Positions 10,003-41,324 of a stretch of DNA of 64,000 bases are shown piece by piece. Each line of letters opens with the position of its first letter. Position 1 is the stretch's first letter. The DNA lies in contig CAWKDB010000010.1 in NCBI GenBank assembly GCA_963848295.1, positions 3,616,001 to 3,680,000 on the forward strand, given 5' to 3'. This DNA is from an uncultured delta proteobacterium (lineage in GTDB: Bacteria; Myxococcota_A; Polyangia; Haliangiales; Haliangiaceae). Both the position numbers and the translations under genes were made by a program. The notes below the pieces were generated by a model. That model searched no databases. It saw only the letters and a program-made list of their open reading frames with translations, and had not been told where the DNA came from.

Positions 10003-10579
10003 GGCGTGACCTCCACGACGTGCGAAGTCGCGCGAGCGCGCGTTCGAGTCGCTTGCGAAACGTGGCGGGCGCGAGCGAGCGGCGCAGCTCGTCGTCGTCG
10101 CCGATCACCGCGAAGATGATCTCGCGATCGTGCGGCGCGAGCGTGTCGAGAGTAGCCAACGCCGCGCGCACGAGCTCGTGTTCTTCGGCGAGCGCCGCGC
10201 CATCGATGGCCGGGACCTGCGCCCGGTCGGCAGCGCCGCCGAAGGGCAGCGCGGTTGGATCGACCGAGCCGGCGTCGACCGCGGCTGCGAGCTGTTCGCC
10301 GCGGCGCTGCGTGCGCCGCCGCGCCGTGCGCGCTTGCCACGTCGCGATCGCGAACGCCCAGGTCAGCGCATCGCGCTCGCGGTCGAAGCGATCGAGCTGA
10401 CCGAACAACCGGACGACCGTCTCCTGCGCGCAGTCCTCGGCGAGGCTCCCGTCGCCGACGAGTCGCGTCGAGTATGCGACGAGCAGCGGCCACAGCGCAT
10501 GAAATAGCGGATCGATCGCAGCGCGGTCGCCATCGGCGGCCGCGATGAGCAAGCGCTGTAGCTCGGCGCGATCGATCAC
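9989..10579 (-). CDS. ECF sigma-70 factor carrying a 19-aa in-frame repeat insertion
   Basis: LAEDCAQET and TWAFAIA (region 2); TFRKRLERALARLR (region 4); the insert VDPTALPFGGAADRAQVPA lies between them. Confidence 0.88.
   Translation of the reverse strand: MIDRAELQRLLIAAADGDRAAIDPLFHALWPLLVAYSTRLVGDGSLAEDCAQETVVRLFGQLDRFDRERDALTWAFAIATWQARTARRRTQRRGEQLAAAVDAGSVDPTALPFGGAADRAQVPAIDGAALAEEHELVRAALATLDTLAPHDREIIFAVIGDDDELRRSLAPATFRKRLERALARLRTSWRSRHGTL
10204..10264. repeat. Family A 57-bp double-hairpin intragenic element, copy 1
   Basis: cgatggccgggacctgcgcccggtcggcagcgccgccgaagggcagcgcggttggatcgac; ATCGA repeated at 57-nt offset (10202 and 10259). Confidence 0.92.
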
Positions 10580-10588
10580 GTCACGGTA

Positions 10589-10735
10589 TCAGTGATGGTT
10601 GCACAGCGGGCAGTGCGCGCAATCCGGGCAATTCGGGCAACACGACCCCGAGCACGGCGTGCTGCGCTTTGCCGCATACGCGGCGACCGGGACGAGCAAG
10701 AAGGCAGCGACGGCGATTCGACGGATGTGCTTCAC
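10589..10735 (-). CDS. 48-aa secreted Cys/His-rich metallothionein-like peptide (absent from the ORF track)
   Basis: GTG start; MKHIRRIAVAAFLLVPVAAYA-AKRSTPCSGSCCPNCPDCAHCPLCNHH*; fills the gap between copZ and the sigma gene on the same strand. Confidence 0.8.
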   Translation of the reverse strand: MKHIRRIAVAAFLLVPVAAYAAKRSTPCSGSCCPNCPDCAHCPLCNHH

Positions 10736-10771
10736 ATCCGATATAGGCGCGAGCCAGGCGATCCGTGACCG

Positions 10772-10972
10772 CTAGCTCGCGGTGGCCGCATATCCGGCCG
10801 CTTCGACCGCCGCGACCAGCTGTGCCGGGTCGGCCTCGCCGGTGACGGTCGCGCGGTGCTCCGCGAGGTCGACCTCGACCGCCGAGACGCCGGAGACCGC
10901 GCGCAGGGCTCGGTCGACGTGGCGCACGCAGTTGTTGCAGGTCATTCCCTCGATGCGCAACGTGGTAGTCAC
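10772..10972 (-). CDS. copZ: Heavy-metal-associated (HMA) copper chaperone
   Basis: 66 aa, IEGMTCNNC motif, ends AVEAAGY. Confidence 0.9.
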   Translation of the reverse strand: MTTTLRIEGMTCNNCVRHVDRALRAVSGVSAVEVDLAEHRATVTGEADPAQLVAAVEAAGYAATAS

Positions 10973-10992
10973 CTAAGGGACCGTAGCACCAC

Positions 10993-13158
10993 GTGGCAGA
11001 CGCGACGATCGATCTTCCAGTCTTGGGCATGACGTGCGCGGCGTGCGTGCGTCGGGTCGAACGCGCGGTCGCGGCGCTGCCCGGCGTCACGCGCGCCGAG
11101 GTCAACTTGCCGTTGTCGCGCGCGCGGGTCGAGCTCGACGCCGCGCAGGTCACGCCGCGCGCGCTCGCCGATGCGATCCGAGACGCCGGCTATGAGGTCC
11201 CGGCCGACGCGCTCGACGTCGCGGGCGAGCCGCGCGACGCCGGCGCGAAGCTCGCCGCGGTCGAGCGGGCCGAACGCGAAGAAGTCTCGACGCTGCGCCG
11301 CGATGCGGCGATCGCGCTCGCGCTCACCGTCCCGCTGTTCGCGATCGCGATGGTGTTGTCGCCGAGTCGCGCGACCGTCACCGCCGAGCTCGTGCTCGGG
11401 ACGATCGTCGTGCTCGGGCCGGGCCGCCGGTACTTTCGCGGCGGACTGGCGGCGGTGCGCCACGCGAGCCCGGACATGAACACGCTGATCGCGCTCGGCG
11501 CCGGTGCCGCGTGGGCGTCGTCGGTCGTCTTCGCGGCGCGCTGGCTCGCGGATCCGATCGGCGGACCGCCGCCGCTGTACTTCGAAGCGGGCGCCGCGAT
11601 CGTCGCGTTCGTGATGGTCGGCAAGCTGCTCGAAGCGCGCGCCCGCGCCTCGCTCTCGAGTGCGGTGCGCGGGCTCGTCACGCTCGCTCCGGCACGCGCG
11701 CGCAAGACATCGGGAGCCGAGGTCGATGCCGCGACGCTCGAGCCCGGTGACGAGATCTCGATCCGGCCGGGCGAGCGCCTGCCCGCCGATGGCACGGTGG
11801 TCTCCGGCACCTCGGCGATCGACGAGGCGATGCTCACCGGCGAGAGCTTGCCGGTCGACAAGACCGAAGGCTCTCCCGCGTACGCCGGCACGCTCAATTA
11901 TCACGGCGCCCTGGTCGTGCGGGTCGCGCGCGCCGGCGCGGCCACCGCGCTCGCCCGGATCGCGCGCGCGGTAGAGGATGCACAGGGTCGCAAGGCGCCG
12001 ATCGCGCGGCTCGCCGATCGCGTGTCCGCGTACTTCGTCCCGGCCGTGCTCGCGATCGCGGCGCTGACGTTCGCGGGCTGGATGATCGGCGGCGCGACCG
12101 CCGGCACCGCGCTCGGTCGGATGATCGCGGTGCTCGTGATCGCCTGCCCGTGCGCGCTCGGGCTCGCGACGCCCGCCGCGGTCGCGGTCGCGACGTCGCG
12201 CGGCGCCCAGCTCGGCGTGTTGTTCAAGGGCGGCGATACGCTCGAGACCGCGAGTCGCGTCACCGTCGCGTGCCTCGACAAGACCGGCACGTTGACCGCC
12301 GGCAAGCCCGCGCTCGTCGGCGAGCCCGATCGCGACATGCTGCGGCTCGTCGCGTCGGCGGAACAAGCGAGCGAGCATCCGATCGCGCGTGCGATCGCGA
12401 TCGGAGCGACCGATCGCGGGCTCGTGCTCGAAGCGCCGGCGCAAGCGACGATCGAGCCGGGCGCCGGGATCTCGGCGACCGTCGCCGGCCACACGGTGCG
12501 AGTCGGCACGCTCGCGTTCGTCGGAGGAGCACCGCTCGCCGCCGCCGAGGCGCTCGCCGCGCAAGGCCGGACCGTGTCTTACGTGACCATCGATGGCGCG
12601 CCGGCGGGGTTCGTCGCGGTCGCCGATCCGCCGTCGGCCACGGCGCGCGACGCGATCGCAGCGCTGCGCACGCACGGGATCGAGCCGGTGATCGTCACCG
12701 GCGATGGCGCTGGCGCGGCGCAGTGGATCGCGAGCGAGCTCGGAGTCACGCGCGTCCACGCGAACGTGCAGCCGATCGGCAAAGCGAAGATCGTCGAAGC
12801 CGAGCGCGCGGCTGGCGCGGTGGTTGCCATGGTCGGCGATGGGATCAACGATGCGCCGGCACTCGCTGCCGCTGATCTCGGCATCGCGATCGGCTCGGGC
12901 GTCGATGTCGCCGCGGCAGCGGCAGATGTCACGCTGCTCGGCGGTGGCATCGCGGCATTGCCCATCGCTTTCGGGCTCGCGCGCCAGGCGCTGCACGTGA
13001 TCCGCCGTAACTTGGCCGCGGCGTTCGCGTACAACGTCGTGTGCATCCCGATCGCGGCCGCGGGCTTGCTGTCACCGGTCGTCGCAGGTGCGGCGATGTC
13101 GGTATCGAGTCTGTCGGTGCTCGCCTCGTCGCTGCGGTTGCGAAGCTGGCGACCGTAG
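10993..13158 (+). CDS. copA: Copper-translocating P1B-type ATPase
   Basis: N-terminal GMTCAAC, TGES, CPCALGLATP, DKTGT, SEHP, GDGIND, YN and MSVSS motifs. Confidence 0.95.
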   Translation: MADATIDLPVLGMTCAACVRRVERAVAALPGVTRAEVNLPLSRARVELDAAQVTPRALADAIRDAGYEVPADALDVAGEPRDAGAKLAAVERAEREEVSTLRRDAAIALALTVPLFAIAMVLSPSRATVTAELVLGTIVVLGPGRRYFRGGLAAVRHASPDMNTLIALGAGAAWASSVVFAARWLADPIGGPPPLYFEAGAAIVAFVMVGKLLEARARASLSSAVRGLVTLAPARARKTSGAEVDAATLEPGDEISIRPGERLPADGTVVSGTSAIDEAMLTGESLPVDKTEGSPAYAGTLNYHGALVVRVARAGAATALARIARAVEDAQGRKAPIARLADRVSAYFVPAVLAIAALTFAGWMIGGATAGTALGRMIAVLVIACPCALGLATPAAVAVATSRGAQLGVLFKGGDTLETASRVTVACLDKTGTLTAGKPALVGEPDRDMLRLVASAEQASEHPIARAIAIGATDRGLVLEAPAQATIEPGAGISATVAGHTVRVGTLAFVGGAPLAAAEALAAQGRTVSYVTIDGAPAGFVAVADPPSATARDAIAALRTHGIEPVIVTGDGAGAAQWIASELGVTRVHANVQPIGKAKIVEAERAAGAVVAMVGDGINDAPALAAADLGIAIGSGVDVAAAAADVTLLGGGIAALPIAFGLARQALHVIRRNLAAAFAYNVVCIPIAAAGLLSPVVAGAAMSVSSLSVLASSLRLRSWRP

Positions 13159-13182
13159 AGCGGGACGCGTAAGATGGTAGCA

Positions 13183-14322
13183 ATGCGGCGACTGGTCGTC
13201 GGTGCGGTGCTCGCGGGATGCAGCTTCACGGCTCCGCAGAGCCCGGCGCCGATCGCCGATGCACCGCCCGGCAGTCCCGATGCCGCGATCGACGCGCAAC
13301 AGCTGCAAGACGGCACGAACATCCCCGCGGACTGGTGGGATCCGGCCTGGACCCACCGCCGGCTGATCACGATCGACAACACGAGCGTCGCGACGTCGCT
13401 CACCGCGTTTCCCGTGCTGATCTCGCTGACCTCCGCGGGGTTCGACTATGCCGACACCCACGACAGCGGCGCCGACCTTCGGTTCATCGCGAGCGACCAT
13501 ACGACGGTGCTGGCGTACGACGTCGACACGTTCAACGGCGGCGGCACCTCGACGTTCTGGGTCGCGGTCGACATCCCGGCGTCGCCGAGCCCGAAGCCGA
13601 CGCTATGGCTGTACTACGACAACGCCGCCGCACCGCGCGCGACCGATGCGGCGACCGTGTGGTCGACCGAGGTCAGCGTCCATCACTTGACCGACTTCAC
13701 CGACGCGAGCGGCAACGGCCACGACGGCGCTGCCGCGTCGATGACCTCGACCCCGACCGCGGTCGGAGGCGAGATCGGCGGCGCGCGGTCGTGGGACGGC
13801 GTCAACGATCAAGTCCTGCTGCCGGCGTCGACCGCGTACGACTTCACGACGGCGATGTCGATGTCGCTGTGGACCCAAGTGAACGCATTTACCGCCGATC
13901 AGTGGGACTGCTTCATTTGCAAAGCGGACGGCGCCTGGCGAGTCCATCGCGGCAGCACGACCTCGCACGCCGACTTCGGGACGACCCAGGCGTCGGGCAA
14001 CGACAACCTCGACACCACCTCGAACGTCACCGGCGGAGCTTGGCATCACATCGCGGTCGAATACGACGGGACGAACAAGTCGATCTACTTCGACGGCGCG
14101 CTCGAGGCTTCGGAGGCGGCGATGACGATCCAGGTCACGAGCGACCCGGTCGATTTCGGCGAGAACACCGGCTCCGCCGACATGCGGTTTCTCACCGGCC
14201 TGATGGACGAGATCCGGATCTCGTCGAAGAAGCACGGCGCGGCGTGGTTCGCGGCCGAGTATCAGACCGTCGCCGACTCGACGTTCGCGACGCTCGGCGA
14301 CGATCAGGTCCTACCGCAGTGA
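13183..14322 (+). CDS. DUF2341-like plus LamG/concanavalin-like domain lipoprotein
   Basis: Lipobox VLAG-C; WWDPAWTHRR...GADLRF...LWLYYDN; WHHIAVEYDG...IYFDG...GLMDEIRIS. Confidence 0.85.
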   Translation: MRRLVVGAVLAGCSFTAPQSPAPIADAPPGSPDAAIDAQQLQDGTNIPADWWDPAWTHRRLITIDNTSVATSLTAFPVLISLTSAGFDYADTHDSGADLRFIASDHTTVLAYDVDTFNGGGTSTFWVAVDIPASPSPKPTLWLYYDNAAAPRATDAATVWSTEVSVHHLTDFTDASGNGHDGAAASMTSTPTAVGGEIGGARSWDGVNDQVLLPASTAYDFTTAMSMSLWTQVNAFTADQWDCFICKADGAWRVHRGSTTSHADFGTTQASGNDNLDTTSNVTGGAWHHIAVEYDGTNKSIYFDGALEASEAAMTIQVTSDPVDFGENTGSADMRFLTGLMDEIRISSKKHGAAWFAAEYQTVADSTFATLGDDQVLPQ

Positions 14323-16554
14323 CTACTGGCGCGGATCGTCACGACCGCCGCCGTTGCGATTGCGGTTGCCGCCGTAGCGATCCCACACGTTGACCGGTCC
14401 GCTCGGTGCCGTTGGCGTCGGGCCCGGGCCGATCGCGGGATGCGGGTTGTACGGCGTGGCCTTGCCGGGGATCTGCGCTTGGAACTCTCGCGGATCGCCG
14501 GACTCGGGTTGGACCAGCAAGCGCAGCGCGCCGCCGTGCTCGCTCAGCTGCGTGTACTCGTCGGTCGCGAGCTTCGCGAAGGCCGCGGCATCGGCGACCT
14601 CGCGACCGTCGATCGCGAGCACGACGTACTGCTCGGCGAGGCCGAGCTCCTGCAGCGGGCCGCGCTCGAGCCCGACGATGATCGCGCCGTGGTCGAGCTT
14701 CTGCGAACGCCACGCGAGCTCGGGGAACATCGTGACGACGGTCGCACCGAGCGCGTGCTCGGTAGCGGCGAAGCTCGCGATCAGCTGTTGCGCGGCGGCC
14801 GCGGGGAGCTCGACCTGCGCGAACGCGACGAACCGCCGGCCCTCGCGCGAGTCGTACGCTTCCCAGTAGCGCGCGCTGGGCGTGAGCCCCTTGAGCGCTT
14901 GCGCGACCGCGTGGCGGCCATCGCGGACCCCGCGGCGGGCTTGCGTGCTCTGTGGATCGCGTGCGAGCTCGGCGAGCGCGGCTTCGCGCGCCGGCATGTA
15001 GCTCGGCGGCACCGCGGCTTGCCACGCCTTGTCTTCGATCTGCCTGCCGAGCTCGAACGCGATCGCTTCGACCGCGGCCTCGCTCGCTTCGTCCTCGGCG
15101 TCGGCCTGGCTCGCGGAGATCGTCGAGACGCCGACGCACGTCGTCCCGCGGCACGAGCTCGTGCCGGGCGTGACCGTCGCTGGAATCCACGCTGGACGCG
15201 CTTCGCCTGCGCTGCGCGCGGCGACCGCACCGACGCCGAAAGGTCCGGGATCCGCGGGCGCGCGCGACTTGAGATACGCGACGACGCCGAACGCCGCGGC
15301 GACCGCCGCGATCGCCAGCAGGATGAACGGCAGCAGATTCGAGCGCGCATCCTCGGTCATCGGCCGCGGTGCCATCGTGATCCGCGGCAGGGACACGCGT
15401 TCGATCCGGCGCGCGCGCAGCTCGGCGATCGTCGCGGCGAGCGCATCGTCGATCGCCGGCTTCGGCAGCGCCGCGACCACCGTCATCACCGCTTCGCCCG
15501 CCGCGCACTGCATGACCGCCTTGCATTGTGGACAGTGGAGCTCGGGTGCGGTCGCGAACTTCAGCACCGCGTGGTGTTCGACGACCTCGATCAGCTGCGC
15601 GCTCGTCGTCGCGCACGAGGGACACGTGTACGGCAGCTCGAAGCTCGCGACCTGGACCTTCGCCCCGAGGTCGTCGCGGGTGCACAGCTTCTCGACGAAC
15701 TGCGGCGGCGCGCCGACGATGTACATCTGGTCGATCAGCGGCGTGACCTGATGGACGAGGTCGCGCCACTCGGCGGCACCGACCGGCTCGACCCGGCCGA
15801 TCGCGGCGGCGTCGATGATCACCGTGCCTTCGAGGCCTTCGGCGAGCTTCGTCCGCGGGAACGTCGAGTTGAGATCGCCGGCGAGCCTCAAGTACGTGAC
15901 CCGGCCCTCGATCATCTTGTCGACGCGCAGCTTGCCGCCGACCGCCGCGACTCGATAATCGAGCTTCGCCGCGAGGAACGCGGTGACGTCGGGTTGCAGC
16001 TCGAAGTAGCCCTGCGCCGCGATGTACGAGAAGAACGTCGCGCCGTCTTCGTCGAAGTACATGCTCTCTTTGCACGACAAGCACGGGCGCTCGTACAGCT
16101 TCATCGCCTTGATCGCTTCGATGTCGCGATCGGTCTGGAGCAACACGCGATGCTCGGAGTTGCAGTAGTCGCAGCGAAACGGTGCGTAGAACGAGAACAC
16201 GTTCGCCGCGCCCGCGAACCCTGCGACCATGTTCAGTTGGTCGACGATCTTCGGCGAGCACTCGATCAAGATGATCGACCGCGTGTGCTGGCCGGCGAGC
16301 GCGATGAAGTCGTTCCATTCGCGGATCCCGAAGGACGAGATCTTGTTGACGCCGCCGAGATCGAGGACGAGCGTCTCGCATTGCACCTGCGATGCGAGCT
16401 TCTTGCCGTCGAAGCTCTCCTCGACCGCGCCGGTCAGTTTCAGGCACGTGATCGCGGCATCGGCGAACTTGTCGATCGCGAGCTTCGGGATCGGATTTGG
16501 CTCGGAGCCGACGCGGGTCTTCGATGTGCGAACTGGCGGTGGAACGGTCGTCAT
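14323..16554 (-). CDS. Membrane protein: two STAS-like/zinc-ribbon repeats, one TM helix, extracytoplasmic domain with PDZ-like C-terminus
   Basis: LVLDLGGVNKISSFGIREW and VIIDAAAIGRVEPVGAAEW; CDYC..CLSC and CPSC..CPQC; TM LLPFILLAIAAVAAAFGVVAYL; LGLAEQYVVLAIDGREV. Confidence 0.75.
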   Translation of the reverse strand: MTTVPPPVRTSKTRVGSEPNPIPKLAIDKFADAAITCLKLTGAVEESFDGKKLASQVQCETLVLDLGGVNKISSFGIREWNDFIALAGQHTRSIILIECSPKIVDQLNMVAGFAGAANVFSFYAPFRCDYCNSEHRVLLQTDRDIEAIKAMKLYERPCLSCKESMYFDEDGATFFSYIAAQGYFELQPDVTAFLAAKLDYRVAAVGGKLRVDKMIEGRVTYLRLAGDLNSTFPRTKLAEGLEGTVIIDAAAIGRVEPVGAAEWRDLVHQVTPLIDQMYIVGAPPQFVEKLCTRDDLGAKVQVASFELPYTCPSCATTSAQLIEVVEHHAVLKFATAPELHCPQCKAVMQCAAGEAVMTVVAALPKPAIDDALAATIAELRARRIERVSLPRITMAPRPMTEDARSNLLPFILLAIAAVAAAFGVVAYLKSRAPADPGPFGVGAVAARSAGEARPAWIPATVTPGTSSCRGTTCVGVSTISASQADAEDEASEAAVEAIAFELGRQIEDKAWQAAVPPSYMPAREAALAELARDPQSTQARRGVRDGRHAVAQALKGLTPSARYWEAYDSREGRRFVAFAQVELPAAAAQQLIASFAATEHALGATVVTMFPELAWRSQKLDHGAIIVGLERGPLQELGLAEQYVVLAIDGREVADAAAFAKLATDEYTQLSEHGGALRLLVQPESGDPREFQAQIPGKATPYNPHPAIGPGPTPTAPSGPVNVWDRYGGNRNRNGGGRDDPRQ

Positions 16555-17498: not shown

Positions 17499-17546
17499 GG
17501 CGAGGGCCCTCGCTTGCGCTAGAGACCCGCGTGCTACGGTTTCGGG

Positions 17547-18704
17547 GTGAGGTGTGCGACACCGATGGCCGGGACCTGCGCCCGGCCAGCAGCACTGCCG
17601 AAGGGCAGTGCGGTTGGATCGATCGTCGCGCTGTTCGTCGGTGTGGCAACAGCGGCGGCGGACCCGGCGGGCGATCTCGTCCAGACCGTGCGGACGACGA
17701 GGTCGCGCGCCGCGCTATCGCAATTCCTCGTCGCGCGCGGCGAGAAGCTCGCGAAGGCGCACGACTACGCCCACGCGATCCCGATCTACGAGGCGCTCGC
17801 GCTCGCCCGCGGGCCGGCGAGCCCCGAGCAGAAGCAGCTCGCGCAGCTGTGGGCGGACGCGAAGCAGACGACCGACGCGGCCGACGCTTGGAGTGCGTTC
17901 GCGGCGGCGACCGCGGATCCCGACGAACGCGCGCGGGCTCAGGTCGAAGCGAAACGGCTCGCCGCCGCACCCGATCCCTACGCGGACAAGCTCGCGCTCG
18001 TCGGCGACGATGCCGACGCGAAGCGCGTGTTCGAGCTCGGCCGCACCGCGTTCCGCGCGAAGCACTTCGGCGATGCGCTCGTGTACTTCCATCTCGGCAG
18101 CGCGCTCGCACCCGATCTTCCCGGATTCTTGCGCGAGCTCGGCGCGACCTACGAGCAACTCGGCGCTTCGCCGCAGCGCCGCGAGTTCTACCGGCGCTAC
18201 CTCGTGCAACGGCCGTTCGGCGCGAACGCCGACGCGGTGCGCGCGGAGCTCGCGAAGGACAAGGACGCGCTCGGCACGCTGCTCGTGTCGTCGAGCCTGC
18301 CGTGCACCGAGATGTGGCTCAACGCCGAGCGGATCGTCGGCAAGCTGCCCGACAAGGGCCTGATCGTCGCGCCCGGCTCGTACAAGGGCCTGTGCTTCAA
18401 CCCGAAGTTCGAGATCGCGCTGTTCGAGTACGCGACGGTCGAGGCCGGCAAGTCGACGACGATGCAGTTCCAATGGGCGGTCGTCGTCAACCAGCTCGAG
18501 CACCCGCTCGGGCGGATCGCGCTCGAGAATCCCAAGGCAGCGGGCACGATGATCGATCTCGGGATCACGTCACCCGAGGTCGGTGTGGCGGTAGCGCCCG
18601 ATCGCCGGCGGCTCAAGATGGTGCTGAAAGACGATTCCGGGGTGCGCACCGAAGAGCGAATGGTGCAGATCGAGCCCGGACAGCGCTTGGTGGTTAAGTG
18701 GTAA
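17547..18704 (+). CDS. Secreted TPR-containing protein with PEGA-like C-terminal region; repeat inserted in its signal peptide
   Basis: TPR-like helices (AKRVFELGRTAFRAKHFGDALVYF, ELGATYEQLG...YRRYL); extended -10 TGCTACGGT 6 nt before GTG. Confidence 0.78.
   Translation: MRCATPMAGTCARPAALPKGSAVGSIVALFVGVATAAADPAGDLVQTVRTTRSRAALSQFLVARGEKLAKAHDYAHAIPIYEALALARGPASPEQKQLAQLWADAKQTTDAADAWSAFAAATADPDERARAQVEAKRLAAAPDPYADKLALVGDDADAKRVFELGRTAFRAKHFGDALVYFHLGSALAPDLPGFLRELGATYEQLGASPQRREFYRRYLVQRPFGANADAVRAELAKDKDALGTLLVSSSLPCTEMWLNAERIVGKLPDKGLIVAPGSYKGLCFNPKFEIALFEYATVEAGKSTTMQFQWAVVVNQLEHPLGRIALENPKAAGTMIDLGITSPEVGVAVAPDRRRLKMVLKDDSGVRTEERMVQIEPGQRLVVKW
17563..17623. repeat. Family A 57-bp double-hairpin intragenic element, copy 2
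   Basis: cgat-ggccgggacctgcgcccggccagcagcactgccgaagggcagtgcggttggat-cgat; both stems are perfect. Confidence 0.93.
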
Positions 18705-18716
18705 GGTCCCGGCCGC

Positions 18717-19913
<1,197 letters not shown>

Positions 19914-19939
19914 CCCGGATCCGGTACAGTAACCAAGTC

Positions 19940-29952: not shown

Positions 29953-30080
29953 AGGGACGGTGTTCACTTTGACAACCAACTAAGACGCTCGGTTGACAAA
30001 GTGAACACCGTCCCCAGCTAAGCGCGCTGAATCGTTGATGACACCGCGGGCGCTTGGTTGACAGAGTGAACACCGTCCCC
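29953..30080. repeat. Family B repeats: forward 29953-29977; reverse 29991-30015 and 30056-30080
   Basis: (A/G)GGGACGGTGTTCACT(T/C)TG(A/T)CAACC; the first two form an inverted pair; the third lies in the citrate synthase 3' end. Confidence 0.92.
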
Positions 30081-31148
30081 GATGTAGGCGGAGGCGGGGC
30101 GGATGAGCTTGCCGACGCGGCGTTGCTCGATGACGTGGGCCGACCAGCCGGCGATCCGGCCGACGGCGAAGGTCGCGGAGAATTGTTCGCGCGAGAGGCC
30201 GACGGCGTCGAGCAACACCGCGGTGTAGAACTCGACGTTCGCGGCGAGCGGGCGATCTGGTTTGCGTTCGCGCAGGATCTTCGCCGCTGCAGCTTCGACG
30301 CCGCGCGCGAGAGCGAGCCGATCGCCGGCGAGGCTGCGGACCGCCGTCTCGAGCACGGCGGCGCGTGGATCACGCACTCGATAGATGCGATGCCCCATGC
30401 CCATGATGCGATGGCCGGCGGCGAGCTCGGCGAGCAACCACGCCTCGGCGTGCTCGGCCGAGCCGACCGCATCGAGCATGTCGAGCACCGGCCCGGGCGC
30501 GCCGCCATGGAGCGGGCCCTTGAGCGCGCCGACCGCCGCAACGACGGCGGAGATCAGGTCGCTCGCGGTCGAGGTCACGACCCGCGCGGTGAAGGTCGAG
30601 GCGTTCATGCCGTGGTCGATCACGGTGACGAGATACGCGTCGAGAGCGCGCGCGGCATCGCGAGTCGGCGTGGTGCCTATCGTCATCCGGAGGTAGTCGG
30701 TCGCGTGATCCAGAGCAGGATCCGGTGCTATCGGGCGCTGGCCGGTGCGCGTGCGATGCCACGCGGCGACGAACACGGGCGCTGCGCCGATCGCGGCGAT
30801 CGCATCGCGCACGTCATCGCCGACCGAGCGTAGGTGAGCGAGTGCGGCGCGCAGCGCGTCCATCGCGAGCGGCGCGGCGAGCGCATCGCCGAGCTGGTCG
30901 AGCATGGTGAACGCGGCGACCCGCGCGATGCCGAGCGCATCCGGCAACGTCGCCGGATCGACATTGGCGCCACCGGCGGCGAGCACGCGCGCCGCCGCGT
31001 CGGCGAACGAGCCGGTCGTCGCGAGTTGTTCGACATCGATGCCGGCGATCACGAGCCGGCCGCGTTCGCCATCGACGTCCGAGATCGCAGTGTGTGCCGC
31101 AACGACGCCTTCGAGCCCGGAGCTAGACGCTGTGGTCGGTTCGGTCAT
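30018..31148 (-). CDS. Citrate/2-methylcitrate synthase family protein
   Basis: GLEGVVAA, DHGMNASTF, GPLHGGA, GMGHRIYRVRDPR, NVEFY, IRP; GGAGG RBS. Confidence 0.93.
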   Translation of the reverse strand: MTEPTTASSSGLEGVVAAHTAISDVDGERGRLVIAGIDVEQLATTGSFADAAARVLAAGGANVDPATLPDALGIARVAAFTMLDQLGDALAAPLAMDALRAALAHLRSVGDDVRDAIAAIGAAPVFVAAWHRTRTGQRPIAPDPALDHATDYLRMTIGTTPTRDAARALDAYLVTVIDHGMNASTFTARVVTSTASDLISAVVAAVGALKGPLHGGAPGPVLDMLDAVGSAEHAEAWLLAELAAGHRIMGMGHRIYRVRDPRAAVLETAVRSLAGDRLALARGVEAAAAKILRERKPDRPLAANVEFYTAVLLDAVGLSREQFSATFAVGRIAGWSAHVIEQRRVGKLIRPASAYIGDGVHSVNQAPAVSSTIQRA

Positions 31149-31183
31149 GATCGCCTCCTACCCGCGATGTACGGCTTGAGCTA

Positions 31184-32583: not shown

Positions 32584-32601
32584 CACGCGCTATAAAACGG
32601 G

Positions 32602-33852: not shown

Positions 33853-33928
33853 GCGTCGTCGCGCACGCGAGAAACTCAGTTCCACCCACTCGCGCCGGCT
33901 TCCCGCGAGGTAGTGTCCGCGGTCGAGG

Positions 33929-34828
33929 ATGGTGGCTCGCGTCATCGCGCTCGTGGTCGTCATCGCCGCCGCCGCGGTCGCGCGCGCGGAGCCGGCGAGC
34001 TCGCCGAAGCATCCGGGGCTGTCGCTCGCGGGTGGCCACGCGAAGGTGGCATGCGTGACCTGCCACGATCGCGGCAACGACAAGCCGCCGTCGAAAGGGT
34101 CGACGTGCGCGAGCTGTCACACCGACGCGCACCACGGCGAGTTCGCCGCCCGCAACAACGGCGAGTGCGCGGGCTGCCACACGGTCGACGGCTTTGCGCC
34201 GACGACGTTCGGCGTGGTCCAGCACGCCTCGACCGGCTACGTGCTCGACGGCCAGCATGCGGCGACGCCGTGCACCGGCTGTCATCCCGGCCCGAAGCCG
34301 CGGCTCGGCTGGCAGCTCGGCGGCACCGCGTGTCTCGACTGTCATCAGAACCCGCACGGCACGCAGTTCGCGAACGAGATGACGACCGACGGTTGCGCGC
34401 ACTGCCACGTGGCCTACAGCTGGCACCAACTGAAAGTCGAACACTCGACCTGGCCGCTGCTCGGCGCGCATGCGCGCACGGCATGCGAAGGCTGTCACGG
34501 CGCGCAACCGAGAGGCGCGCCGGCCGCGGCGTATCGCGGCATCCCGCGCACGTGCGAAGGCTGTCACGAGGACATCCACGCCGCGCAGTTTCGCCAGACG
34601 CCGCCGGTGAAGACCTGCGACGGCTGCCACTTGACCGAGACGTGGACGATCGCGAAGTTCGATCACGACAAGACGCGCTATCCACTCGAGGGAGCGCACG
34701 TCGGGCTCGCATGCGCGCAGTGCCATCCGACCGCGACGCTGCGCGATGGCCAGCAAGCGGTGCGCTGGCGGCTCGGCTACGTCGAGTGCAAGGCTTGCCA
34801 CGCCGATCCTCACGCAGGTGCCAAGTGA
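33929..34828 (+). CDS. Secreted multiheme c-type cytochrome (11 CxxCH)
   Basis: Signal peptide; 11 CxxCH motifs counted; repeated FDHxxTxYPLxGxH units. Confidence 0.93.
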   Translation: MVARVIALVVVIAAAAVARAEPASSPKHPGLSLAGGHAKVACVTCHDRGNDKPPSKGSTCASCHTDAHHGEFAARNNGECAGCHTVDGFAPTTFGVVQHASTGYVLDGQHAATPCTGCHPGPKPRLGWQLGGTACLDCHQNPHGTQFANEMTTDGCAHCHVAYSWHQLKVEHSTWPLLGAHARTACEGCHGAQPRGAPAAAYRGIPRTCEGCHEDIHAAQFRQTPPVKTCDGCHLTETWTIAKFDHDKTRYPLEGAHVGLACAQCHPTATLRDGQQAVRWRLGYVECKACHADPHAGAK

Positions 34829-35715
34829 CGCGCGCGCTCGTCGTGCTCGTGTTGTCGGTCGGCGTCGCGACGGCGGCGCCCGGCGTGGCGCACGACGGCG
34901 TCACCGGCGATCTCGATTGCAGCGCGTGCCACACCGCCGCGAGCTGGAAGTTGTCCGCGACCGCGGGCGCCAGCGGCTTCGATCATGATCGCACCGGCTT
35001 CCCGTTGCGAGGCGCGCATGTCCAGACGTCCTGCGCGGGTTGCCACGACAGCGCGAAGCTTCCATCGACGGCCGGGGCTCGCCCCCGGACGGCAGCGTCG
35101 CCGGATGGCGATGCGGTTCCATCGACGTGCGACGGCTGTCATCGCGATCCGCACCTCGGGCGGATGACTGGCCAGTGCTACGAGTGCCACACCGCGGTCG
35201 CGTGGTCCGACGTCGACGCGCTCGAGCAACATCGCCGCACCCGCATGCCGCTGACCGGCAAGCATGCCGTGATCGATTGCGTCGCGTGTCACAAGAATCA
35301 AGCGGCGCGGCAGTACAGCGACACCCCGGTCGACTGCTTCGCGTGCCACCAAGCCGACTATCGCGCCGCGACGACTCACCCGAACCACGATGGCACCGAT
35401 CCGAAGGGCGACGGCAAGCCGTACCCGCGCGCCTGCGCGATGTGCCACAACCCGATCGGCTGGTCGCCGGCGTTCAGCTCGCCGAGCTTCACCGCGCAGA
35501 TCGCGCGCGCCGAGCACGAGTCGTCGTTCTCGCTGACCACCGGCAGTCACCGCACGGTCGAGTGCAGCGGCTGTCACATCGATCGCCGCCGCCCGCGCGC
35601 GGTGCGCTGCGACGGTTGTCACGACGAGAATTCGCTGCGCGGCCAGCACCGCAGTCGGGTCACGACCGAAGCGACGAGCTGCTTGCATTGTCATCCGCGA
35701 GGCGCGAGGCGATGA
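34825..35715 (+). CDS. Secreted multiheme c-type cytochrome (10 CxxCH)
   Basis: GTG overlaps the previous TGA; signal peptide; 10 CxxCH motifs counted. Confidence 0.92.
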   Translation: MTRALVVLVLSVGVATAAPGVAHDGVTGDLDCSACHTAASWKLSATAGASGFDHDRTGFPLRGAHVQTSCAGCHDSAKLPSTAGARPRTAASPDGDAVPSTCDGCHRDPHLGRMTGQCYECHTAVAWSDVDALEQHRRTRMPLTGKHAVIDCVACHKNQAARQYSDTPVDCFACHQADYRAATTHPNHDGTDPKGDGKPYPRACAMCHNPIGWSPAFSSPSFTAQIARAEHESSFSLTTGSHRTVECSGCHIDRRRPRAVRCDGCHDENSLRGQHRSRVTTEATSCLHCHPRGARR

Positions 35716-37331
35716 ATCGGCTCGTGCTCGTCGCGGCGGTCGTCGCCGGCTCTGCGCAGCCCGCGCGCGCCGACCGGCTCGCGGTCAGCGTCGTCGAGAT
35801 CGCGGGCGCCAACGCGTACTTGTCGCCCGGTCGCGCGGCCGGGCTCGGTCCGGGCTCGCATGTCGAGCTCCACGGCCGTGACTTCGTCGTGATCGGAGCG
35901 ACCGAGAAGTTCGCGGTGATCGATCGCGCGGGCTCGCCGCTCGCGATCGGCGAAGCCGGGATCGCGAACGCCACGCCGTCGCGGCTCGACCGTGACGAGA
36001 AGCTGCCGGCGCCGAAGCCGCTCGAAGCGTTTCGCGATCAATGGCCGACCGCCGAGCTCCCGGCCGCGACCCAGCACGTTGCGGCCGTGGCACTCGGTGC
36101 TGGCGCCGCCGCAGGCCGGTCGCGGCTGACGATAACGAGCACGCTGTCCGGCGGCCTCGACAGCGCCGGTACGAATGGCGAGCTCGAGACCCGCGCGATC
36201 GGATCGTTCGCGCTGTCATCGCAACAACCGCTCGGCGCGGACGTCGACGCCGCTTTTCGCTTGTTCGGCGACGGTTGGAACGCGCACGAGCGCACGCCGC
36301 TGTTCGTCAACGCCGCGCAGCTGCGGTGGGGAGACCCGGCAGATCCGAATGTGCTCGTGGGTCGCTTGCGCTATGCCGCGACGTCGCTCGGCATGCTCGA
36401 CGGCGGCCGAGCCATGCTGCACGTCGGCGACCTCGAGCTCGCCGCGTTCGGGGGCGTGTTACCGGATCCGGTGAGCGGTCATCCCGACACCGACGCATCC
36501 GAGTTCGGCGCCGAGCTCGTGTGGGATCGCGCGAGGTCGGCGTGGCAGCCGCGCGTCGCGTTGACCGCGCACGGCACGACGTGGGACGGCGCGATCGACG
36601 AGCGCGTCGTCTCGGTCGCCGCGAGCGCGCATCACGACGCGGTGCTGCTCGATGCGTGGGCCGACGCGCAGATGTTCTCGGCAGACAATCCGTGGAACGC
36701 GCCGACGATCGACCTGACCGGCGCCGGCGCGACCGCGGAGTGGCGCCACCTCGGCAGTCACCTCGGCATCGATCTGACATTCTTGCGGCCGCAACGCTCG
36801 CTCCGTCTCGCCGCCGCGTTGCCCGCGGACTGGCTGTGCGCGCGCGCGCCACAACCGGGCAACATCGCCGAGTCGTGCCTCGGCGAAGACTATTGGCTCG
36901 CGGCGACGGCCTCGGCCGGCAAGAGCGGTCATGGTTGGTCGGTCGACGCGGTCGGGTCGATCGGCGAGACCCGAGGCGTCGCGAGCGGCTACGACACCTC
37001 GGGCTACGTGCGCGCCGAGCTCGGCCCGCGCGTCGTGCGGTTCGTGCTCGCGCCGGCCGGAGGTCACGATAACTTCGGAGCGTGGGTCGCGACCGACATC
37101 GGCGTCGCCACCGCGCCGTCGCGCCAGCTCGACCTCGCGGTGACCTATCGGCCGGAGCGGCTCGACTACGTCGCCGCCGCGGGCGCGACGTTCGTCCAAG
37201 CGCTCGTCACCGAGCTTCACTGGTCGGTCACGCCATCGTTCGACGTCGCGGTCTCCGCGGTCGGCAGCATCGGTGGTGATCTGAACGTGCTCGATCTGAT
37301 CACGACGCTCGCGTGGAGGCCGCTGCGATGA
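35712..37331 (+). CDS. Probable outer-membrane beta-barrel protein in the cytochrome operon
   Basis: ATGA coupling; signal peptide; many amphipathic beta-strands; C-terminal TTLAWRPLR. Confidence 0.72.
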   Translation: MNRLVLVAAVVAGSAQPARADRLAVSVVEIAGANAYLSPGRAAGLGPGSHVELHGRDFVVIGATEKFAVIDRAGSPLAIGEAGIANATPSRLDRDEKLPAPKPLEAFRDQWPTAELPAATQHVAAVALGAGAAAGRSRLTITSTLSGGLDSAGTNGELETRAIGSFALSSQQPLGADVDAAFRLFGDGWNAHERTPLFVNAAQLRWGDPADPNVLVGRLRYAATSLGMLDGGRAMLHVGDLELAAFGGVLPDPVSGHPDTDASEFGAELVWDRARSAWQPRVALTAHGTTWDGAIDERVVSVAASAHHDAVLLDAWADAQMFSADNPWNAPTIDLTGAGATAEWRHLGSHLGIDLTFLRPQRSLRLAAALPADWLCARAPQPGNIAESCLGEDYWLAATASAGKSGHGWSVDAVGSIGETRGVASGYDTSGYVRAELGPRVVRFVLAPAGGHDNFGAWVATDIGVATAPSRQLDLAVTYRPERLDYVAAAGATFVQALVTELHWSVTPSFDVAVSAVGSIGGDLNVLDLITTLAWRPLR

Positions 37332-37771
37332 GGCGGAGCTTGATCCTCGTCGCGCTCGCCGCGTGCACCGAGCCACACGGCACGGACCACGTCTCGCTCG
37401 CGTCCGACGCTTGCGTGACCTGCCACGTTGCGTCCGTGCCGAACGCGCTCGTCCATCCCGAGACGATGTTCCCGATCGCGGCGCAGAGCTCGCCGCACCT
37501 CGACGTCGACTGCGACGACTGCCACGACTTCTGCCGCGGCTACGGCCTGCTCGGCCTTCACGTCGATTGCACGAACGAGTGCCACCTGCGCAACGACCCG
37601 TCGAACGCGTGCCTCGAGTATCCGGCGTCGATGGGCACCAAGCCGTGCGGAGCGATCGACTCGACCCACACCGATGGCATGCACGACGATCCGGTGACCG
37701 GCGCGCCGTACGCGTGGGACACCGTGGACCACGACTTCTGCGTGGAGTGCCACCCAGCCGGCCTGCGTTAG
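37328..37771 (+). CDS. Lipoprotein c-type cytochrome (3 CxxCH plus one CxxxCH)
   Basis: MRRSLILVALAA-C; CVTCH, CDDCH, CTNECH, CVECH. Confidence 0.82.
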   Translation: MRRSLILVALAACTEPHGTDHVSLASDACVTCHVASVPNALVHPETMFPIAAQSSPHLDVDCDDCHDFCRGYGLLGLHVDCTNECHLRNDPSNACLEYPASMGTKPCGAIDSTHTDGMHDDPVTGAPYAWDTVDHDFCVECHPAGLR

Positions 37772-37775
37772 CGCG

Positions 37776-38168
37776 CTACGCCTGGATGCCGTTGGGCGCG
37801 GCGGGATCGAACGTGGCCTTCGACACCGGCAAGCCGCGGAGCACCAGCGTCAGCACCGTGCCGCCACCGGCGACGTACGCCTTGGGCAAGAACAAGTAGT
37901 AGTTCTTGACGCCGTCTTCCGGTGCCGGTCCATGGGCTTGCGTGCCGGAGCTGCCGGTCAGCATGCGGACCTTTTCCCCGGGGGCGAGCACGAACCCGGG
38001 GTCGATGATGCCGAGCAAGGACTTCTTGCTCGAGCCTTTACGACCCACGGTCATCCCGCAGCCGCGCGTATTGAATGGAGCCTTGCCGACGTTCTCGAGG
38101 ATCACCCACTCGCTGTTGAGCGCCTCTGCGGTTTCGGCGGCCTTGATCTCGACGAAGCGGATCGCCAT
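37776..38168 (-). CDS. Lamin-tail-domain-like small protein
   Basis: LNSEWVILENVG...FVLAPGEKVRMLTG. Confidence 0.72.
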   Translation of the reverse strand: MAIRFVEIKAAETAEALNSEWVILENVGKAPFNTRGCGMTVGRKGSSKKSLLGIIDPGFVLAPGEKVRMLTGSSGTQAHGPAPEDGVKNYYLFLPKAYVAGGGTVLTLVLRGLPVSKATFDPAAPNGIQA

Positions 38169-38232
38169 AAGCGCGCGCAGCATACACCGCCCTTCCGTTG
38201 CATTCGGGCCTAAAGCATCGATAATGCGGGCG

Positions 38233-38637
38233 ATGGCCAAAGAGGTGATCCGCGTCGTCGCCGCCGTGATCGAGCACGACGGCCGCTACCTGATCACCCA
38301 GCGAAACGCGAACGCGGTGTTGCCGATGCTTTGGGAGTTCCCGGGCGGCCGCGTCGAGCGCGACGAATCAGAGACGACCGCGCTGTCGCGCGAAGTCCGG
38401 TTGCGCATCGGCGTCGACGTCATCGTCGGCGCGAAGCTCGGCGAGCACCTGCACGACTACACGACCTACCAGGTCCAGCTCACGATGTACAAGTGTCAGC
38501 TCCAAGCCGAGGCGCGGCCGTATCCCGCTGCGGTCGCGGATCTGCGCTGGGTGACCTCGCGCGAGTTCCTCGACTACGACTTCCCGCCGGCTGACGAGAA
38601 GACGATGTCGAAGCTCTTGGGCCTCGTAAGGAACTAG
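38233..38637 (+). CDS. MutT/NUDIX nucleoside triphosphate pyrophosphohydrolase
   Basis: IRVVAAVI...WEFPGGRVERDESETTALSREV...FPPAD. Confidence 0.9.
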   Translation: MAKEVIRVVAAVIEHDGRYLITQRNANAVLPMLWEFPGGRVERDESETTALSREVRLRIGVDVIVGAKLGEHLHDYTTYQVQLTMYKCQLQAEARPYPAAVADLRWVTSREFLDYDFPPADEKTMSKLLGLVRN

Positions 38638-38650
38638 ATTCGAGAGGCAG

Positions 38651-39451
38651 TTGCGGATACGCAGTCTCGCGCTCACGACCGAGCTCGCGTTGGCCGCTAC
38701 GCGCGGGCGCATCACCGACCGCGGTGACTACATCGTCGTCGAGAGTCCCGACGACCCGGGCTACTACTACGGCAACCTGCTCGTGCTGCCGGCGGCGCCG
38801 CAGGTCGGCGAGGTCGCGTACTGGACGCGGCGGTTCGGAGAAGAGCTCGGTCACAATCCGCTGATCCGTCACGTGACATTGCAATGGGACGACATCACCG
38901 GCGATGTCGGCGCCGGCGACGAGCTCGTCGCCGCCGGGTTCCAGCTCGAGGTCAATCAGGTCATGGTCGCCGAGGTGGTGACCGCGCCGCCGGCGGAGCT
39001 GCCGACGCGCGAGCTCGAACCGGACGACGTGCTCGCCACCGTCGATCTCGCGTGGGCGATCGGCGATCGCCACGACGAGGCGTATCGCAGCTTCTTGCAT
39101 CGCCGCGCCGAGTGGCATCGCACGCTCGTCGCTCGCGGCAGCGCACGATTCTGGGGCGCCTTCGACGGCGCACACTTGGTCGCGAGCCTCGGCCTGGTCG
39201 AGCTGCTCGAGCTCGCGCGCTATCAAGACGTCCAGACCGCGACGGCCTATCGCGGCCGCGGCTTGGCGGGCGCGCTGCTCGCGATCGCGGCTCGTGCGAG
39301 CCCGGCCGAGCGCCGTGTGATCGTCGCCGAGCCGGACAGCACCGCCGCACGGGTCTACGAGCGCGTCGGGTTTCGCACGGTCGAGCGCAGCGCGTCAGCG
39401 TGTCACTACCCGCCCGGGGTCAGCGCACGATCTTCGCGATCACGATGGTGA
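38651..39451 (+). CDS. GNAT family N-acetyltransferase
   Basis: YYYGNLL; DVQTATAYRGRGLA; ARVYERVGF. Confidence 0.85.
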   Translation: MRIRSLALTTELALAATRGRITDRGDYIVVESPDDPGYYYGNLLVLPAAPQVGEVAYWTRRFGEELGHNPLIRHVTLQWDDITGDVGAGDELVAAGFQLEVNQVMVAEVVTAPPAELPTRELEPDDVLATVDLAWAIGDRHDEAYRSFLHRRAEWHRTLVARGSARFWGAFDGAHLVASLGLVELLELARYQDVQTATAYRGRGLAGALLAIAARASPAERRVIVAEPDSTAARVYERVGFRTVERSASACHYPPGVSARSSRSRW

Positions 39452-41324
39452 CGCCGAGCGCGACGAGCAACGCGACGACAAACAGCACCGCGAGGATCCA
39501 CGGCGGGATCGCCTTGGCCGGTTGCGCCGCAGCGGCCGCCCAATCGATCGCGTGCGGATATTGGTCGCCGACCGGCGACATCAGATTCGCCGCCGCCTTC
39601 GGATCGCTGGCCGGGACCTGCGCCCGGCCAGCAGCGCTGCCGAATGGCAGCGCGGTTGGATCGATGCTGGGCTCGAACACAGGTGCGCGCTGCGGTGGCG
39701 GGGTATTGCTCGGCGCGAGATCGCTCGACCACGGCCGACCGCCGGCCATGACCGGGTAGGGTGACGCCGGGCCGGGCGGATACGAGCCGGGTGGCTGCGA
39801 CGGTCCCGCGCGCTGCGGCGCCCCGTCGTCCGGGGGGCGCGCGACCGGTTGACTCGCGGTCTGCGCGCGAGCCGGGTCGACGATCTCGCCGCCGATCTGA
39901 GTCGGCGCGAGCGCCGGCTCTTGCTGGGTCTTGCGCTGGACCGCGGGGCGCGGGCCGCTCGGTCGATCGAGGCGCACCTGGGGACCGGTCGGCGGCGCCG
40001 GCAATGGCGCGGGGCCGCCGGTGATCGAGCCGGTCGGCACGCGCATCGGCTGGGGGGTGTGGCGCGCGGCGTGGGCCGCGTCGAGCTCGCGCACCTTGTC
40101 GAGCGGGTTGGCCTCGATCCGCGTGCGGTCGGCGGGGATCTCGTCTTCGTCGTCGGGGTTCCCGATGCCGGCCACGACCTCCTCGAGCGACGCACTGCCG
40201 ACCGAGATCTCCATGACGTCGCTGCTCTCGAGATCGAGCGACTCCTCTTTGTCGCCGCCGAGGTTCACGGTCTCGGCCTTCTTGTCGTCGTCACTCCAGC
40301 GGATGCCGGTGTCGACCGAAACCTCGCGGCCCGAGATCAGCTCGCGCATCCGCTCGCCGTGCTCTTCGATCTCTTGCTTGAAGTACTGATCGAAGAACCG
40401 CGACAGCTCCGCCGGACCCGAACCTTTGCCGCGATGGTGCAGGTACCCGAGCATCGCGTCGCCGAACGCCTCTGCGGTCGGATAGCGCTCGTCCTTGTCC
40501 TTCGCGACGGCCTTGAGCACGATCTCGTCGATCGCCGGATCGAGCTCGTGGTTGATCGCCGACGGTGCCGGTACCGCGCATTCGATCACGGCTTGATAGG
40601 TCTCGTATGCCGACCCTCGCTTGAACAAGCGCTTGCCGGTGAGCAGCTCGTGCACGATCACGCCGAGCGCGAACACGTCGGTGCGGCGATCGACGTTGGT
40701 CGCGATGCATTGCTCGGGCGACATGTACGCGAACTTGCCTTTGATCGTGCCGGCCTTCGTCTTGGTCTCGCGCAGCTCGGCGCGGGCGATGCCGAAGTCG
40801 ACGACCTTGACGATCCCCTCGAAGCTGATCACGAGGTTCTGCGGCGAGATATCGCGATGCACCATGATCAGAGGCTTGCCGTTCGCGGTCCGCTCGTGCG
40901 TGTAGTGCAGCCCGGCCGCCGCTTGGGCCGCGATGTTGAGGATGAGCTGGGTCGGCAAGCGGCCACCCGCGAGCCGCTCGTTCGTGCGCCGCACGATCAT
41001 CGCCAGCGACAGGCCGGCGAGAAACTCCATGACCATGTAATAGCGGTTCTCGTGCTCGCCGAGCTCGAACGTCTGGACGATGTTCGAGTGGTCGAGCATC
41101 GCCGCGAGCCGGGCCTCGTCGAGAAACATCGACACGAAGTCGGCGTCGTCGGCGAGGTGGTCGTGCAGGCACTTGACGACGACGTACTTCTCGAACCCCG
41201 CCGTGCCGCCGATGCGCGCGAGATAGATCTCGGCCGTACCACCGAGCGCGAGTAGCGCCAGGATCTCGTACTTGCCTAGTCGCTTGCCGAGCAGCGACCC
41301 GGCCCCGGCCGGAATCCCGGACAT
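39420..41324 (-). CDS. Ser/Thr protein kinase with C-terminal membrane anchor and in-frame repeat insertion
   Basis: LALGGTAEIY, HRDISPQN, DFGIA, YMSPEQ; Pro-rich linker containing IDPTALPFGSAAGRAQVPA; C-terminal TM. Confidence 0.93.
   Translation of the reverse strand: MSGIPAGAGSLLGKRLGKYEILALLALGGTAEIYLARIGGTAGFEKYVVVKCLHDHLADDADFVSMFLDEARLAAMLDHSNIVQTFELGEHENRYYMVMEFLAGLSLAMIVRRTNERLAGGRLPTQLILNIAAQAAAGLHYTHERTANGKPLIMVHRDISPQNLVISFEGIVKVVDFGIARAELRETKTKAGTIKGKFAYMSPEQCIATNVDRRTDVFALGVIVHELLTGKRLFKRGSAYETYQAVIECAVPAPSAINHELDPAIDEIVLKAVAKDKDERYPTAEAFGDAMLGYLHHRGKGSGPAELSRFFDQYFKQEIEEHGERMRELISGREVSVDTGIRWSDDDKKAETVNLGGDKEESLDLESSDVMEISVGSASLEEVVAGIGNPDDEDEIPADRTRIEANPLDKVRELDAAHAARHTPQPMRVPTGSITGGPAPLPAPPTGPQVRLDRPSGPRPAVQRKTQQEPALAPTQIGGEIVDPARAQTASQPVARPPDDGAPQRAGPSQPPGSYPPGPASPYPVMAGGRPWSSDLAPSNTPPPQRAPVFEPSIDPTALPFGSAAGRAQVPASDPKAAANLMSPVGDQYPHAIDWAAAAAQPAKAIPPWILAVLFVVALLVALGVTIVIAKIVR
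39605..39665. repeat. Family A 57-bp double-hairpin intragenic element, copy 3
   Basis: cgctggccgggacctgcgcccggccagcagcgctgccgaatggcagcgcggttggatcgat; GGATCG(C/A)T repeated at 57-nt offset (39601 and 39658). Confidence 0.93.

Follow-up and report, generated by a model that had tools for sequence, protein, structure and literature searches.

The subject of this analysis is a 57-nt double-hairpin DNA element found within genes of a 64,000-nt stretch (the window, positions 3,616,001 to 3,680,000 of contig CAWKDB010000010.1) from an uncultured delta proteobacterium of the Haliangiaceae; copy positions are given in window coordinates. A preliminary description, made from the sequence alone, had reported three near-identical copies inside coding sequences (CDSs) and had proposed that they represent a minimal mobile element. 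The three copies (10204-10264, 17563-17623 and 39605-39665; copies 1 to 3) are indeed present, each in an open reading frame (ORF), and agree pairwise at 55-57 of 61 bases. A fourth copy, at 35066-35126, had been missed; it is more diverged and matches the others at 44-47 of 61 bases. A CGAT-like word stands at both ends of copies 1 to 3 with a spacing of 57 nt, these copies contain no stop codon in any of the six frames, and their translations are the peptides given earlier. Both stems were seen as described, and the compensatory A-T to G-C change noted in stem 2 of copy 3 is also found in copy 1.

Copy 1 is read from the opposite strand as a 19-aa insert of an extracytoplasmic function (ECF) sigma factor. 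Since five orthologs of this protein lack exactly these 19 residues, a clean gap of the kind that the preliminary description had anticipated, sequence comparison identifies copy 1 as a gain and not a loss. In run X3, which comes from a relative, one contig lacks 57 nt at 10210-10268. In its AlphaFold model the sigma factor has a single low-confidence segment, residues 103-124, at the insert, which hints at a flexible loop, the alignment being gapped at this segment. The host of copy 2 had been labeled a tetratricopeptide repeat protein, which was not confirmed, as the protein has no Pfam match at 1e-4 and no NCBIfam match at 0.01. Its start at 17547 is backed by the empty allele described below, and an ATG inside copy 2 may provide an alternative start of the gene. 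Features of the window, and arrays elsewhere in the same genome, are listed in Table 1.

Table 1. Element copies, host genes, HUH genes and tandem arrays (window coordinates, except for the arrays)
Feature	Position	Strand	Remarks	Evidence
Copy 1, element proper	10205..10261	+	57 nt; ends put at TC|GA by inference	sequence, empty alleles
Copy 1, hairpin 1	10207..10229	+	mismatches in copy 1; family stem with compensatory changes at 8/10 pairs	
Copy 1, GCAG tag	10230..10233	+	foot of hairpin 2; resembles REP GTAG; candidate guide	
Copy 1, hairpin 2	10233..10252	+	8-bp stem, 4-nt loop	
Host of copy 1	9989..10579	-	ECF sigma factor; insert in linker after region 2	
Copy 2	17564..17620	+	same strand as host; N-terminal signal-peptide-like region	
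Host of copy 2	17547..18704	+	predicted secreted protein; no Pfam or NCBIfam family	
Copy 4	35067..35123	+	in frame between heme-binding motifs; site empty in G104	
Host of copy 4	34825..35715	+	multiheme cytochrome c	
Copy 3	39606..39662	+	opposite strand to host; Pro-rich C-terminal region; site empty in G104	
Host of copy 3	39420..41324	-	Ser/Thr protein kinase	
Y1 HUH transposase	41361..42146	-	multicopy family; own GCAG-tagged long-hairpin leader; not flanked by element	
Second Y1-like HUH gene	47515..48414	+	5 genome copies; own inverted terminal repeat arrays; unrelated to element	
Tandem arrays in ORFs of G000	C10:73704-74051, C2:158770-159058, C11:700844-701132, C10:2727949-2728237			

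Empty alleles, census and distribution

The genome holding the window (G000; 7.8 Mb) was compared with G104, a genome of the same genus that is about 90% identical to it and contains 144 matches to the element model. All four window sites are empty in G104, each exactly 57 nt shorter. In the reverse direction, 58 of the 144 G104 copies were examined, of which 13 had no traceable ortholog and one weak match was spurious. Among the 45 traceable copies 28 are empty in G000, 21 of them with one gap of exactly 57 nt; a further 10 are common to both genomes and 6 are partial. The 29 sites filled only in G104 provide a non-circular test of genic location: 23 lie inside genes predicted on the empty G000 allele, and 20 of these read through open, with the remaining 3 hitting a stop in an automatic frame call that is doubtful. 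The family is real, recently active and genus-restricted, with precise gain or loss of 57 nt at orthologous sites, and the clean empty alleles, together with the sigma factor orthologs, bear out the earlier proposal of a minimal mobile element. The empty alleles, the orthologs lacking 19 residues and the G104-only genic insertions also exclude both an assembly artifact and conservation at the protein level, and the census below excludes a lack of further copies. As a separate observation, G104 has two shortened copies (L162 and L163) at sites orthologous to ~45.0 kb and ~31.1 kb of the window, where the window is empty.

An iterated profile search of G000 detected 160 main-family copies at E<=1e-3, as compared with none at E<=1 in the reversed genome. 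These copies group into 137 loci. A sister subfamily, whose tag is GTAG, contributes 34 further copies at 19 loci; of these loci, 13 are within predicted genes, and in 12 of the 13 the element is on the strand of the gene. Thus, the expectation of many copies genome-wide held. By our own dicodon gene calls, 95 of the 137 main-family loci are inside a CDS, in both orientations, 12 overlap a CDS end and 30 are intergenic. G000 is GC-rich and about 87% coding, and 2408 of 3000 random genomic 61-mers fell inside CDSs; therefore, the element mildly avoids genes (p=0.003) and does not seek them, an avoidance far less than that of ordinary repetitive extragenic palindromes (REPs). The host genes include those for EF-G and RecG, both above NCBIfam cut-offs, and for a UvrD-like helicase, an acyl-CoA dehydrogenase, PlsX, a histidine kinase and a sigma-54 activator, which were compared with paralogs by BLAST and named by reading their sequences. 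The net gaps of these genes relative to their paralogs are mostly 15-24 residues and often exactly 19.

The genic loci are more often opposite to the gene strand (62/95, p=0.004), and G104 behaves alike (15 vs 2 in the main phase); lineages other than these two appear to prefer the strand of the gene. Neither stop codons nor Trp codons significantly explain the orientation bias (p=0.22 and 0.12, respectively).

The covariance model that the preliminary description had suggested was built, and within the genus it matched 62 of 91 genomes. Two of the genomes counted for the genus (G010 and G057) are flagged as unpublished, and no claim depends on either by itself. In other genera of the class there were two single weak matches among 142 genomes, and viral contigs gave 0 matches. 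Exact-pattern matches came from records titled Kofleriaceae, from unclassified Deltaproteobacteria and from one metagenome-assembled genome titled Acidobacteriota. The element is confined to one genus in the genomes searched.

Hairpins, ends and reading frame

Counted from the first C of the 61-mer, hairpin 1 spans positions 4-26 and is extended by the pair G2:C28, the tag occupies positions 27-30, hairpin 2 comprises positions 30-49, and the tail ends in ATC. In 146 full-length main-family copies the tag is GCAG in 83 and TCAG in 31; in the sister subfamily it is GTAG. Across 45 copies, 90.9% of cells in the structure are paired, and two-sided changes occur at 11 of 18 pairs. Shuffled sequences never reached the covariation score, and slid controls paired at 26-51%, a lenient control given that the structure was drawn from the same sequences. 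Conservation is at the level of DNA and structure and extends across several reading frames. The consensus has no terminal inverted repeats beyond a 4-5 nt palindromic site. Copies are single or in direct tandem, with no inverted doublets of the same unit, and the two hairpins are unlike in sequence.

For the end words we compared 100 single copies and 28 filled/empty pairs, having left out arrays, partial copies and poorly aligned flanks. The left and right words agree only at chance level, and deviations from the consensus are rarely common to both (2/40, 0/4, 0/5 and 5/23). Therefore, the repeat at the two ends does not represent a target duplication of 4 bp. The core bases are nearly fixed (in the 100 copies, C is found in 96 on the left and 88 on the right, and G in 95 and 97, respectively). 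Up to and including position 0 the empty alleles match the left flank, and from position 4 onward they match the right flank, which brackets the crossover inside the CGA core. G000 shows an identity between left and right at position 7/64 (p=0.002) that did not recur in G104.

Differences between the subfamilies bear on where the element begins. Among elements beginning NCAA, taken across lineages, 69 of 72 GTAG copies have A as N and 0 of 70 GCAG copies do, 69 of the latter having G; the base before N varies. From these sequences the element would start at the paired base N, that is, at TC|GA in the main family and at G|ACAAG in the GTAG subfamily. Empty alleles of the GTAG type read GACAAG or a close variant, and the gains are 57 nt at several sites and 54-60 nt at others. 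A further covariation links stem base 26 to target base 61, which is the third base of the target past the cut (p=4e-5). Thus, the two subfamilies differ together in tag, first base and target, GCAG going with TCGAY and GTAG with GACAAG.

The preliminary description had also proposed selection for protein compatibility, a claim that stands in part. The T of the end word falls in the three codon phases as 75:18:2, and all TCGA sites in genes are distributed as 71866:16043:2047 (chi-square p=0.96). Frame use thus mirrors the supply of TCGA and needs no selection beyond target availability. The absence of stops in all six frames, true of copies 1 to 3, is enriched in the family and is not a rule of it: it holds for 68 of 160 copies, as compared with 21.6% of shuffled sequences and 18.7% of 61-mers drawn at random from the genome. 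What may point to such selection is length. All 111 genic copies are a multiple of three nucleotides long, and 9 of the 49 others are not, a comparison that is partly circular. The period of tandem arrays is an alignment-free measure of length; it is 54, 57 or 60 in 31 of 38 arrays (from 18 relatives, kin not being independent) and 57 in 9 of the 10 arrays of G000. Codon-multiple length is enriched across lineages. In G000, arrays of 5-6 units within ORFs make repeat regions of 95-115 residues, and at array sites common to G000 and G104 the copy number differs.

Mobilization and comparison with known systems

The absence of a target duplication and of terminal inverted repeats, and the compensated stems, are best fitted by single-strand cutting and rejoining of the REP type. 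On balance we favor a nonautonomous 57-nt element that is probably moved as single-stranded DNA by a REP-type HUH (Y1) transposase encoded elsewhere in the genome, a scheme of which we infer every enzymatic step. TnpA-REP is described as cutting single-stranded DNA on either the 5' or the 3' side of a hairpin with a GTAG tag (Corneloup et al., PMC8266576), and for the Marinomonas REPs, tag bases T2 and G4 are reported to select C|A, with tag changes moving the cut (PMC8266576). By analogy, the same scheme applied to GCAG would give C|G, which fits the invariant core of the main family. Also in favor of a Y1 enzyme, such genes are common, with 20 genes or fragments in G000 and distant RAYT-like (REP-associated tyrosine transposase) matches in 89 of 91 genomes. 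The folded strand would be bound at the tag and hairpin 2, and base 2 of the tag would pair with the base 3' of the cut, so that the same cut (C|G for GCAG) would be made at the 5' end, the 3' end and the target. The element would leave as a single-stranded circle and be joined into the target without duplication, giving precise insertion at TCGA-like sites and adding 19 codons. Because the genome is GC-rich and largely coding, most targets would lie in genes, where only variants that are 3n long and poor in stops would persist. Tandem arrays likely arise later, by slippage between the two end words; one array junction has bases from beyond the element end, which fits slippage. A more far-reaching version, which we regard as tentative, is a self-targeting, codon-length protein-insertion cassette in which a tag base sets the cut, which was retargeted once (GCAG->TCGA, GTAG->GACAAG), and which has placed loops of 17-20 residues in hundreds of proteins across the genus, with a Y1 enzyme acting in trans and untied to the element.

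Several observations weigh against movement by a REP-type Y1 enzyme. The empty alleles only bracket the cut, between positions 0 and 4, and are compatible with a 2-bp CG duplication; the covariation of tag and first base is equally expected from an ordinary hairpin foot. In the GTAG subfamily the base before the proposed cut is mostly G (51/72), where the REP rule predicts C; the base after it (A) fits the rule. IS200/IS605 elements show replication-strand bias, unlike the 57-nt element (loci on the two skew arms of C10: 27 vs 26 and 20 vs 14), and inverted REP doublets are absent among the copies. Of the 20 Y1 genes or fragments of G000, the nearest is 1.7 kb from a copy. No protein in the 91 genomes, which are incomplete, reaches the NF047646 cut-off for REP-associated tyrosine transposases (RAYTs). 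No element flanks any HUH locus in four partly overlapping scans of 40, 31, 30 and 57 loci. In the first of these only 9 loci were HUH loci (G000 Y1); the second comprised 30 Y1 loci from five element-rich genomes (30 of 55 matches taken) and the G000 Y2 locus, the third the NF047646 loci, and the fourth further Y1 and Y2 loci. Finally, no small neighbor gene recurs at 247 element loci, where ORF clustering yielded only host families (kinases and sigma-54 regulators).

The two HUH genes of the window had been suggested as movers, which did not hold up: they have their own unrelated end repeats and, like the other HUH loci scanned, are not flanked by the element. They score 36 and 31 bits against the RAYT cut-off of 80, and their closeness to copies is best read as coincidence; the 41361..42146 gene is a weak candidate for a mover in trans. 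Upstream of this gene, at 42131-42520, lies a structured leader, about 180-300 nt long, whose long hairpin has a GCAG word at its foot. This leader is found 11 times in the genome, not always together with an intact transposase gene, and constitutes a separate Y1-linked element; beside it, at 42576-42995, is a fragment of a Mutator (IS256)-family transposase. The second gene lies between short-repeat arrays in inverted orientation (47178-47350 and 48529-48885), and five gene copies have similar ends. These inverted terminal repeats are like those of TIRYT genes as described in PMC3733652 and PMC6006769.

Other searches for a mobilizer were made as well. A tblastn search with six transposases of G000 as queries gave no match in 141 further loci and three partial matches in 203 loci. 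Half-element searches of G000 revealed no gene bounded by element ends, and the Y1 flanks differ. A single-copy Y1 gene at C10:3806.7 kb has relatives in 66 of 91 genomes that do not track the element, and weak hairpin-1-like matches near two Y1 genes (L247 and L252) proved to be chance matches inside neighboring coding sequence. At G000:C10:653184-653747 there is a Y1-like ORF without the HUH motif and catalytic tyrosine region, possibly decayed or domesticated.

We consider it unlikely that a small circle is instead excised and inserted by conservative recombination across the TCGAY or GACAAG core, through a tyrosine or serine recombinase or another small nuclease rather than an HUH enzyme. 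The target does resemble the 5' end of the element (the GTAG-type right flank after GA is C 52, A 50, A 50 and G 44 of 70), there is no duplication, and no HUH locus is linked among the loci scanned. However, recombinase-type binding arms are absent, no nuclease or recombinase neighbor recurs at the 247 loci, and the compensatory stem changes point to a single-stranded substrate. Moreover, GCAG copies beginning GCAA are flanked by GA rather than GC, which a simple identity of target and 5' end would not give.

More doubtful is a 55-nt MITE (a miniature transposable element with inverted repeats) whose DDE transposase would duplicate the CG of T^CGA. Its terminal inverted repeats would have to lie within the 4-5 nt site, both stems are internal and asymmetric, the target of the GTAG subfamily is non-palindromic, and the half-element searches of G000 found no longer parent with these ends; in its favor, CG is nearly invariant on both sides, as a 2-bp duplication would have it, the main-family target is palindromic and there is no strand bias. 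Spread via RNA is improbable, be it by reverse transcription of a structured transcript or with mini-intron-like removal from mRNA such that the peptide is never made. The two hairpins would form equally well in RNA, the majority of copies lie in transcribed genes, and the excess of loci opposite to the gene can be cited for it. Both orientations are found in genes, however, 3n length and an open frame would be needless if the insert were spliced out, and the window has no Rfam match. A minimal IS91-type rolling-circle derivative with a Y2 HUH transposase is very improbable: the lack of duplication, a tetranucleotide-like target, tandem arrays and one IS91-like locus in G000 speak for it, but Y2 occurs in 27 of 91 genomes and, among the 23 genomes with 20 or more element matches, in only 6, is most numerous in G101, a genome without the element, and has no element at the Y2 loci scanned, and the array junction with bases from beyond the element end fits slippage. 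The region G000:C10:52819-54550 (L224) has two IS91-like Y2 transposase pieces in opposite orientation, in an integrated region beside an excisionase-like gene. An integron attC or retron origin was dropped, as the motifs needed are absent from the element ends.

In its build, then, and in its probable chemistry, the element is REP-like. With REPs and REPINs (REP doublets) and their RAYT (TnpA-REP) it shares a GYAG tetranucleotide 5' of a short GC-rich stem (PMC8266576, PMC3116915, PMC6006769), high copy number, lineage restriction, fast turnover and the lack of a transposase of its own. The hairpin 1 core GGCTTGCC, present in 20 of the 146 full-length copies, also occurs in Pseudomonas fluorescens REP cores (PMC3116915, Table 1). 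Yet REPs, as these sources describe them, are mainly intergenic, whereas the 57-nt element is mostly intragenic; a REPIN is an inverted doublet, whereas this element consists of two unlike hairpins in fixed order with sharp ends and a defined target; and in REP systems the cognate RAYT is flanked by the repeat, whereas no flanked RAYT was found here at the loci scanned. Intragenic GTAG/CGTC REPs are described in ORFs of Opitutus terrae, Thioalkalivibrio and others, where they add 20-30 aa, including in helicases and repair genes (Di Nocera et al. 2013, PMC3733652), much as RecG and a UvrD-like helicase are hosts here. Most REPs of the Opitutus terrae type are described as intergenic (PMC3733652), whereas genic copies are the majority in the 57-nt element. 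The main text of PMC3733652 does not contain the words 'Myxococc', 'Haliangium' or 'delta'.

In its effect the element resembles the Rickettsia palindromic elements (RPEs), which the preliminary description had cited as a precedent, and which are likewise palindromic DNA found in frame in unrelated genes and encoding a recurrent peptide (PMC10969869, PMC3733652). Indeed, in-frame palindrome insertion is already known from Rickettsia RPEs and intragenic REPs. Compared by description only, the RPE unit is about 150 bp and rickettsial, whereas the 57-nt element resides in a large, free-living, GC-rich genome, is read in both orientations and several frames, and has a target and boundaries set by empty alleles. 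IS200/IS605 elements (IS608; PMC8266576, PMC5934647) are similar in the lack of target duplication, in hairpin ends and in a target apparently tied to an internal guide. They differ in that the 57-nt element has no parent sharing both ends in the G000 search and no replication-strand bias, and the four-base guide rule of IS608 does not fit it. Thus, the element fails membership among both REPs and RPEs, since it is not extragenic, has no inverted doublets and no flanked RAYT, and is neither RPE-sized nor rickettsial. Unusual features are its mostly genic location, its codon-multiple length and the tag-linked change of target. A literature search, with supplements and most subscription papers not covered, found no published account of the 57-nt family.

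The route by which REP- and RPE-like palindromes get into genes is not settled, and most families have neither a defined moving unit nor a defined target. In the present case the comparison of filled with empty alleles sets the unit at 57 nt and brackets the cut, and there are two natural subfamilies with different tags and targets; guide-directed targeting therefore becomes testable with short oligonucleotides. The element is also a measurable source of new protein sequence, as most copies differ between genomes only about 10% apart and the hosts include EF-G, RecG, sigma factors and kinases. If an enzyme is found, a 57-nt, frame-preserving, duplication-free insert could serve as a compact tool for inserting loops in proteins.

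The window also contains a conserved 33-nt intergenic word with TTGACA, at 269-304, 525-557, 29990-30087 and 55516-55616, between divergent or tandem genes. It occurs twice as pairs 65 nt apart, has 64 short BLAST matches genome-wide and looks like a promoter or operator box.

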